From: a virus
Taxonomy: Duplodnaviria > Heunggongvirae > Uroviricota > Caudoviricetes
Strand: one strand, 5' to 3'
Virus record (IMG/VR): IMGVR_UViG_3300037483_001818
DNA: 64,000 nt
In this document: positions 54,385 through 55,069 of the stretch, in pieces
Numbering within the stretch: position 1 is the first letter of the stretch
Layout of the letters: every line of letters begins with the position of its first letter
Translations under genes and position numbers: made by a program
The notes under the pieces: model-generated
Seen by the model: only the letters and a program-made list of their open reading frames with translations
Databases searched by the model: none
Told to the model about the DNA's origin: nothing

Positions 54385-55069
54385 GTGAATGCATCATCAT
54401 CTGATTCTGTCGTCGTCGAGGTCCGCGCGGCCGAGGGTGGCGCAGACGCCAAGCTCCTCGTGCTTGAGCAAGTGAAGATCTACCTGCGTCTCTGCACGCG
54501 GAGGTCTCTTTAGCGTCGAGATAGTAGAAGATCGGCCCGGCATCGCTGTGCTCTGCGTCGCGGGTCGCGGCGCCGCGGCACTGTTCGCGGGGGAGTGCGG
54601 TGGTCACCGATGGCAGCGCGTGCCTGAGACCGAGAAGCGTGGACGTGTGCACACGAGCACGATCACCGTTGCGGTGCTTGAGGAGCCACGGCACGTCGAG
54701 CTGACGATCCGCCCCGAGGACGTCGACATCGAGACGATGCGTGGCTCCGGTGCCGGCGGCCAGCACCGGAACAAAACGGACTCGGCCGTGCGCGCACGTC
54801 ACCGGCCGACCGGGATCGAGGTCCGCTGCGAGTCCGAGCGATCTCAGCATTTGAACCGCGAGCTCGCGCTGCGGGTCCTCGCCGCGCGCGTCGCGGAGCG
54901 GGCGCGATCGGCGGCGCAGGGAGAGCGCGATGCCGATCGTCGTCGGCAGCTCGGGTCTGGCATGCGCGGCGATAAGCGGCGAACAATTCGAACGCAGGAC
55001 GACCAGGTGAACGATCACGTCGACGGCCGGACGTGGCGATACAAGTCGTACGCGCGTGGTGACTGGTAG
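54385..55069 (+). CDS. prfH: PrfH-like truncated class-I release factor (GGQ) that needs a +1 frameshift at CTT TAG (54508-54513)
   Basis: frame-1 segment (54385-54513) [29 protein letters not shown] aligns to RF2 domain 2; frame-2 continuation carries [16 protein letters not shown] and the RF C-terminal [14 protein letters not shown] block. Confidence 0.55.
54499..54514 (+). promoter_or_regulatory. candidate programmed +1 frameshift site: GGAGG-tct-CTT-TAG-C
   Basis: SD-like GGAGG, 3-nt spacer, slippery CTT T, in-frame stop; mirrors the prfB site AGGGGG-uau-CUU-UGA-C. Confidence 0.5.

Follow-up and report, generated by a model that had tools for sequence, protein, structure and literature searches.

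We consider it likely that a window of 64,000 nt of viral DNA (IMG/VR record IMGVR_UViG_3300037483_001818, Caudoviricetes; 'the window' denotes this whole stretch throughout) carries at positions 54,385 to 55,069 a single gene for a short class-I release factor (RF) of the RF1 lineage, the full product of which would be made only through a programmed +1 frameshift of the type known from prfB, with competition from termination, or feedback, as part of its control. The frame-0 open reading frame (ORF) runs from a GTG start through 42 codons to a TAG, and the ORF in the +1 frame comprises 185 codons, closes at its own TAG (55067-55069) and ends in ...GGQ...RGDW. The two are successive parts of one protein, which as a +1 fusion starting at the GTG at 54385 is 227 amino acids long (the features of the locus and their coordinates are collected in Table 1). 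At the junction (54499-54514) the sequence, read directly, is CGGAGG TCT CTT TAG C, and it has the features of a prfB-type cassette: a CUU codon with an adjacent in-frame stop, a Shine-Dalgarno (SD)-like element at a distance of 3 nt, a C after the stop, and the remainder of a release factor encoded in the +1 frame. The pattern GGAGGNNNCTTTRR occurs only once in the window, against 0.06 occurrences expected. An initial annotation made from the letters of the window had described one class-I RF homologue lying in two adjacent frames with a prfB-style site (GGAGG, 3-nt spacer, CUU and stop); the sequence is as described there, and Pfam and phmmer both follow the fusion as a continuous protein. 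A downstream stimulatory RNA structure was not found, the window RNA 3′ of the site folding no better than shuffled sequences (z +0.6).

A protein search returned about 100 relatives of 70–97% identity that match only the downstream 75–82% of the fusion, as well as more distant relatives of 219–235 amino acids that are uninterrupted. We sampled 120 related loci from IMG/VR, Joint Genome Institute (JGI) metagenomes, contigs of metagenome-assembled genomes in the Genome Taxonomy Database (GTDB) and GenBank phages, and placed the N and C parts of the protein separately in each locus by tblastn. The C part was placed in the +1 frame relative to the N part in 95 of the 120 loci, the protein identity of which goes down to about 50%. 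These shifted loci contain 83 unique junctions, every one of which has CTT before the stop (CTT-T). The stop itself is TGA in 65, TAG in 15 and TAA in three, and is followed directly by C in 61; CGGAGG occupies positions −9 to −4 in 48, an SD-like match of at least 4 nt is present in 67, and the spacer codon has the form NNT in 63 of 82 junctions. The GGAGG-NNN-CUU-UAG context proposed in the initial annotation is thus shared by homologues with respect to CTT-T and, to the extent just given, CGGAGG, whereas its use of UAG in place of UGA, correct for the window, does not extend to the family as a rule. Among the unshifted relatives (n = 21), CTT is found at the matching codon in one only (L114), Arg-Arg is frequently replaced (by QQ, RH, HH or RN), and LDVE or LTLE follows in frame, the uninterrupted proteins reading ...RRGLDVE..., ...QQRLTLE... 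or ...RHGLAVE... at the site. The cassette is also present, unannotated, in the curated 485-kb huge phage LR745208.1 (CGGAGG GGT CTT TGA C), which is the sole true relative among GenBank phages and plasmids, the other matches there being to cellular-type prfA or prfB. In IMG/VR, 352 contigs encode a relative, and many of these are 100–470 kb in size.

A gene split in this way might be a pseudogene, the result of a sequencing or assembly indel in the T run, or a pair of pieces that are translated separately. One extra T in CTTT would indeed give exactly such a split, and gene callers annotate the downstream ORF only, as a protein of 171–219 amino acids. However, the same +1 break is found at the same codon in all the shifted loci, which come from many samples and assemblers, and an independent Logan assembly of run SRR12684493 has DNA identical to the window at the locus, with the extra T included. 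The run of three Ts is, besides, too short for transcriptional slippage. Both parts are conserved at the protein level while third positions vary freely, and this is true of the frame-0 part across loci, which argues against a pseudogene. As to separate translation, the first in-frame start of the downstream ORF is GTG 54548, the use of which would remove the first helix and strands of domain 2, elements that are confidently modelled within the fold. The error and pseudogene versions are refuted by the conservation in 95 loci together with the identical independent assembly, and to this group of explanations as a whole we attach next to no weight. Uninterrupted homologues without a slippery site, which the initial annotation had seen as the sign of a simple pseudogene or sequencing error, did not turn out to be the prevailing form, given the number of loci that need the same shift. 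Taken at the level of sequence, the comparison strongly supports a conserved programmed site.

The nucleotides of the junction provide further evidence. CTT makes up 15% of the Leu codons elsewhere in the shifted genes, in contrast to its invariance at the site, and AGG and CGG account for 10% and 16% of Arg codons elsewhere but for 66% and 75% at the site. The information content of synonymous positions is 0.02–0.4 bits through most of the flanks, with peaks of 1.41 (−10), 1.04 (−7), 0.87 (−4) and 2.0 bits (−1); the base following the stop (+4) carries 0.91 bits, and third positions 3′ of the site are unconstrained. Since synonymous information peaks only there and codon usage is skewed, these alignments show selection on the nucleotides of a 16-nt cassette, CGGAGG-nnT-CTT-TRR-C, and not on the amino acids that it encodes.

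As judged by profile comparison and a structure model, the product is a short class-I release factor of the RF1 lineage that lacks domain 1, and not the PrfH-like protein named in the initial annotation. Pfam places PCRF (PF03462) at residues 6–95 and RF-1 (PF00472) at residues 104–211 of the fusion, as one continuous protein. Among NCBIfam models RF1 ranks first with 210 bits (profile positions 102–314 of 347), followed by RF2 with 130 and PrfH (TIGR03072) with 105 bits; the fusion does not have the full-length architecture of RF1, and its 210 bits fall below the cut-offs of the RF1 equivalogs (400 and 423). Bacterial RF1 is the best match in both sequence and structure, with 42% identity, and the phmmer alignment to RF1 of Thermotoga maritima is ungapped across the junction (ctrrslsveive against AERKGWNLEVAE). 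The AlphaFold2 model of the fusion has a mean predicted local distance difference test (pLDDT) score of 88.8, with 92–96 for the frame-0 part (residues 1–40), and the junction falls in the loop of domain 2 that links the first helix (14–33) to the next strand (37–44). Foldseek aligns the model to ribosome-bound RF1 with a template-modelling (TM) score of 0.90–0.92 and a root-mean-square deviation of about 2 Å. The fusion keeps the stop-reading elements of RF1, namely the GG tip (AEGG), the Gln of RWQRVP, a PxT-type tripeptide (PET), HTS and an ungapped loop. It consists of domains 2–4 only, and there is no space for a domain 1 because tRNA genes lie directly upstream of the gene. RF1 without domain 1 has been reported to be active both in vitro and in vivo (Baranov et al. 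2006, PMC1586002).

A PrfH-type rescue factor that works with the nearby RtcB, rescuing and repairing damaged ribosomes, would also be short and without domain 1; an RtcB gene is situated about 4 kb away, and the surroundings are rich in RNA-repair and rescue genes, including a transfer-messenger RNA (tmRNA). Yet the PrfH score of the fusion is below the cut-off of TIGR03072 (166.65) and RF1 models score double, the scores against sequences in the PDB are 66 bits for PrfH as opposed to 169 for RF1 (and about 106 for RF2), and the TM score falls from about 0.9 to 0.66 when the model is compared with PrfH. The stop-reading elements that have been lost or changed in PrfH, which has GP instead of GG, an SXY tripeptide and a 3-residue gap in the recognition loop (Baranov et al. 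2006, PMC1586002), are intact here. PrfH is encoded in an operon with RtcB (Burroughs and Aravind 2019, PMC6514570), whereas the RtcB ORF of the window is on the opposite strand, with the tmRNA and other ORFs in between, and RtcB is found in the flanks of only one of the 120 related loci. Thus, although PrfH and the present product are both short class-I RF homologues without domain 1, none of the distinguishing features of PrfH is seen, and the RtcB-PrfH pairing that had been suggested for this locus has to be given up; we regard a role of that kind as highly improbable.

By analogy with prfB, synthesis of the full-length factor would involve a ribosome that pauses with peptidyl-tRNA-Leu on the CUU codon in the P site, while the UAG in the A site is slowly decoded. 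The internal CGGAGG would pair with 16S rRNA and, the spacing being too short for a relaxed SD–anti-SD helix, would help the slip, in which the tRNA-Leu would re-pair from CUU to UUU and decoding would restart at AGC in the +1 frame. One can presume that ribosomes do shift here, with an efficiency set by the competition between the slip and termination in frame 0, so that the output of factor would rise when termination is slow and fall when it is fast. The tRNA-Leu (GAG) expected to read CUU is encoded in the window and also in the arrays of many relatives. Two other tRNAs were considered in connection with the shift. A quadruplet-anticodon tRNA as its cause was rejected, as the 4-base anticodon call in the window (tata, 46930-47003) does not match CUUU. 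The tRNA with anticodon GCU directly upstream of the gene decodes AGC, the first codon of the +1 frame, and a link to the shift is speculative; this is probably a coincidence.

Since the stop in the window is UAG, the site would sense host RF1 and, by extension, possibly the product itself: with its RF1-type reading head the factor probably reads UAG too, which would make the arrangement the RF1 counterpart of the prfB negative-feedback loop. From the sequence, an RF1 sensor is a reasonable interpretation of the UAG site in this window, and true autoregulation by the RF1-type product is plausible. A number of observations weigh against such a reading, some against its feedback part and some against the need for the switch as such. 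The stop is UGA in 65 of the 83 junctions, yet the reading heads are RF1-like in all members (PPT, PET, PPN), and there is no covariation across relatives between stop identity and either the tripeptide (PPT, PET, PPN and others) or the H/Q before TS. Because most stops are UGA in genes with RF1-type heads, self-recognition is not a general rule, unless the specificity of the factor has broadened. The SD-like element is poor or absent in about 16 of the 83 junctions. Furthermore, some unshifted members are nested within the shifted clade, three of which (L040, L041 and L042) lack the shift site but have an in-frame stop, and two of which (L062 and L071) are not interrupted at all; as these do without the shift, the switch would appear to be dispensable or replaceable. 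In the UGA relatives, the switch would report host RF2 activity, or would set a low fixed yield, or else the factor would read stops beyond the range of RF1.

It could also be that the frameshift is real and acts as a constitutive throttle instead of a sensor, holding a factor whose excess is harmful at a low, fixed yield, with the identity of the stop mattering only in so far as a stop is a slowly decoded A-site codon. The variation of the stop among TGA, TAG and TAA without covariation with the reading head would agree with this, the TGA state can be explained by an origin from CTT-GAC (see below) without selection for RF specificity, and overexpression of RFs is toxic (Prince et al., PMC12421855). 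A stop-dependent shift is, however, inevitably sensitive to RF activity at that stop, which makes throttle versus sensor a matter of degree, and TAA, which both host RFs read, is rare (3/83), while the weak +4 C is selected (61/83; 0.91 bits). The rarity of TAA and the selection for C at +4 suggest that the competition between termination and shift has been tuned, and we consider a pure throttle unlikely. Returning to the frameshift as a regulatory switch, we would tentatively propose, as a possibility that falls short of being probable, that huge phages gate a minimal RF1-type terminator of their own by a convergent prfB-like switch, by which they would read the RF2 or RF1 termination capacity of the host and top it up, the UAG lineages having a true RF1-type autoregulatory loop.

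The shifted genes cluster in one large group when 103 unique proteins are placed in a neighbour-joining tree. TAG variants are scattered over it in at least 12 places, each a separate origin, and TAA variants in three. TGA is the commonest stop and apparently the ancestral state; stop identity showed no relation to the GC content of the locus or to the terminal stop of the gene itself. The residue after the Leu is Asp or Glu in most of the fused products and in many unshifted relatives, and since it is usual in both forms, the cassette most likely originated by insertion of one T into an ancestral ...CGG AGG GGT CTT GAC... (Arg-Arg-Gly-Leu-Asp), which would have created CTT-TGA-C and left the product unchanged. 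Such an origin would explain why TGA predominates. It is plausible that TAA, with Asn in the product, was an intermediate on the way to TAG, with Ser. Because it lies in domain 2 and the protein has no domain 1, the site is not the positional homologue of the one in prfB, and the cassette probably arose independently of prfB, convergently, by T insertion.

In-frame stops of other kinds were seen in the family and were judged by column analysis, as ORF coverage under varied stop sets and cross-locus tblastn were uninformative or noisy. The nested members L040 (6001-6654), L041 (6001-6648) and L042 (6001-6657) have theirs at the position of the shift stop, about 100 nt into the match, in the contexts TAT TAG ATG, CTC TGA CTG and CTA TGA CTG, respectively, without CTT and without an SD-like element; the sister loci L040 and L042 differ in their stops. 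These loci may keep the control point in a form that works by readthrough, or the phages concerned may have reassigned the stop codon. Basal unshifted members have an in-frame TGA at a Leu/Trp column (L002, L003, L004, L029, L030, L035) or at other hydrophobic columns (L110, L114, L112, L118), the columns being Trp in RF1, or Leu, Phe, Ile or Val in the family. The alignment suggests that the phages carrying these basal members read TGA as Trp while encoding an RF1-type factor; a similar proposal (TGA read as Trp, with an RF1-type factor present) has reportedly been made for the code-change modules of Jade phages. In another locus, L026 (1195-3105), no stop interrupts frame 0 over the 636 codons that precede the shift site, and an upstream gene could there overlap the N-terminal part of the factor or be joined to it.

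The relatives and the gene content make it probable that the element is a huge phage; no structural genes were seen in the window. The window contains 43 tRNA genes for nearly all amino acids in four clusters, the tmRNA, RtcB, an AAA ATPase and an HNH endonuclease, and the tRNA clusters together with the tmRNA and RtcB make up a large translation and RNA-repair island. Unusual calls among the tRNAs are His (ATG) at 22265-22333, Ile (AAT) at 46705-46778 and the 4-base anticodon tRNA mentioned above. The two class-II Ser-type tRNAs beside the gene and the RtcB ORF, which the initial annotation had pointed out, are confirmed in their positions; the tRNA nearer to the gene was missed by ARAGORN, and its class-II match in Rfam (34.9 bits) is under the gathering score of the tRNA-Sec model. 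Of 40 relatives sampled, about 25 are located within tRNA arrays of the same strand or at their side, and a tmRNA adjoins the gene in three (L010, L043 and L051), as in the window. Only these tRNA and tmRNA surroundings recur, no conserved protein-coding neighbours of the window gene being found in relatives at E <1e-5. The large flanking ORFs at 55072-56372, 59176-60597 and 62702-63904 (all on the minus strand) have no Pfam or PHROG match and no counterpart near the RF gene in relatives with 83–85% RF protein identity; synteny around the RF gene is accordingly very low. Within the 694-codon RtcB ORF the RtcB domain covers residues 253–694 only, so that either translation starts further downstream, or some 250 N-terminal residues form an extension without a Pfam match. 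The HNH endonuclease (27554-28336, plus strand) lies between tRNA clusters and matches many PHROG families (best E 2e-16), as is characteristic of mobile homing elements in the tRNA regions of phages.

Table 1. Features of the release factor locus and its surroundings in the window
Feature	Position	Strand	Remarks
tRNA clusters (four)	18623-23513, 29993-34040, 46705-47003, 54034-54370		43 genes, nearly all amino acids
tRNA-Leu (GAG)	33070-33146	+	isoacceptor expected for CUU at the shift site; putative role
RtcB ORF	48331-50415	-	694 codons; about 4 kb from the RF gene
tmRNA	53559-53921	-	tag ANDNNGAVALAAA; 173.6 bits
tRNA-Met (CAT)	54034-54110	+	
tRNA-Ser (CGA)	54193-54282	+	class-II
Class-II tRNA	54287-54370	+	anticodon loop ttGCTaa (Ser GCU by reading); directly upstream of the gene
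Initiation SD, GGAGG	54373-54377	+	7 nt upstream of GTG; sequence read directly, putative role
Frame-0 ORF	54385-54513	+	first strand and helix of RF domain 2, with GG tip (AEGG, 54430-54441)
CGGAGG, internal SD-like element	54499-54504	+	putative frameshift stimulator; Arg-Arg codons CGG AGG (GGAGG at 54500-54504)
TCT, 3-nt spacer	54505-54507	+	would be E-site codon during the shift; spacing equal to prfB
CTT, slippery Leu codon	54508-54510	+	P site
TAG, frame-0 stop, and following C	54511-54514	+	stop 54511-54513 (A site); C 54514, weak termination context
+1-frame ORF	54512-55069	+	remaining domain 2 (PET tripeptide 54623-54631), domain 3 (GGQ 54755-54763), domain 4

Autoregulatory recoding has its textbook example in the prfB frameshift. 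With the family described here the same 16-nt device would have been invented a second time, apparently independently: the gene belongs to the RF1 lineage, the position in the protein is another one, TGA, TAG and TAA versions exist, and the carriers number hundreds of viral contigs. The family is a natural experiment in which the essential parts of the cassette can be told from the others, as CUU-U never varies and there is flexibility in the SD-like element and in the choice of stop; it also provides evidence for long-term selection on a release factor without domain 1. On the practical side, annotation can be corrected for a family of which gene callers at present report only the downstream fragment. 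The idea is raised that large phages monitor and supplement the termination capacity of their hosts, and, if this is true, the UAG lineages would hold an RF1-type autoregulatory loop that is absent from the reports of recent surveys of cellular genomes.

Compared with the E. coli prfB site, AGGGGG-UAU-CUU-UGA-C (PMC12421855), the phage cassette has the same order of an SD-like element, a 3-nt spacer ending in U, CUU, an in-frame stop and then C; in both cases the product is a class-I RF, and the shift competes, or here would compete, with termination. The differences are that the phage site is at codon 43, in domain 2, and not at about codon 26, in domain 1 of RF2; that the gene is of the RF1 lineage and not RF2; that the stop is TGA, TAG or TAA (65/15/3), where prfB nearly always has TGA; that the stop is mostly not the one that the product is predicted to read; and that the carriers are phage or viral contigs and not cellular chromosomes. 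A survey of bacterial genomes (Prince, Lin and Feaga, mBio 2025, PMC12421855) concluded that the frameshift is confined to RF2 and that TAG is never used (0 of 8,164 motifs), and found no evidence of programmed frameshifting in prfA. With bacterial RF1 (prfA) the product shares the PCRF and RF-1 domains, the PxT-type tripeptide, the Gln of RVQRVP, HTS and GGQ, but the roughly 105 residues of the N-terminal domain 1 are missing from it, and its tip is GGxDA as compared with GGD/EEA.

Genes for RF1 or RF2 have been reported from phages among tRNAs, tmRNA and translation genes (Al-Shayeb et al. 2020, PMC7162821; Borges et al. 2021 preprint). In these reports, which deal with huge and alternatively coded phages, a frameshift is not mentioned, nor is an architecture without domain 1, and LR745208.1, a published huge-phage genome, carries the cassette unannotated. 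The review of Atkins et al. (2016) makes no mention of frameshifting in prfH or in phage RF genes. In line with the initial annotation, which knew of no programmed frameshift of this kind, no description of the RF family or of its cassette was found in the open-access full-text literature searched, although a report elsewhere is possible. A frameshift cassette in a phage gene of the RF1 lineage thus appears to be undescribed, the type of recoding being known and the gene family and type of host being new. The nearest viral precedent is the class-I RF gene of Mimivirus and Megavirus, which needs a frameshift and readthrough and was interpreted as an instance of bacterial-style autoregulation (Jeudy et al. 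2012, PMC3521657). There, as is probable here, the synthesis of a viral termination factor requires recoding at internal stops; but the Mimivirus and Megavirus factor is of the eRF1/aRF1 type, encoded by a eukaryotic giant virus and controlled by other signals, whereas the present one is a bacterial RF1-type factor of phages with a canonical prfB-like cassette.

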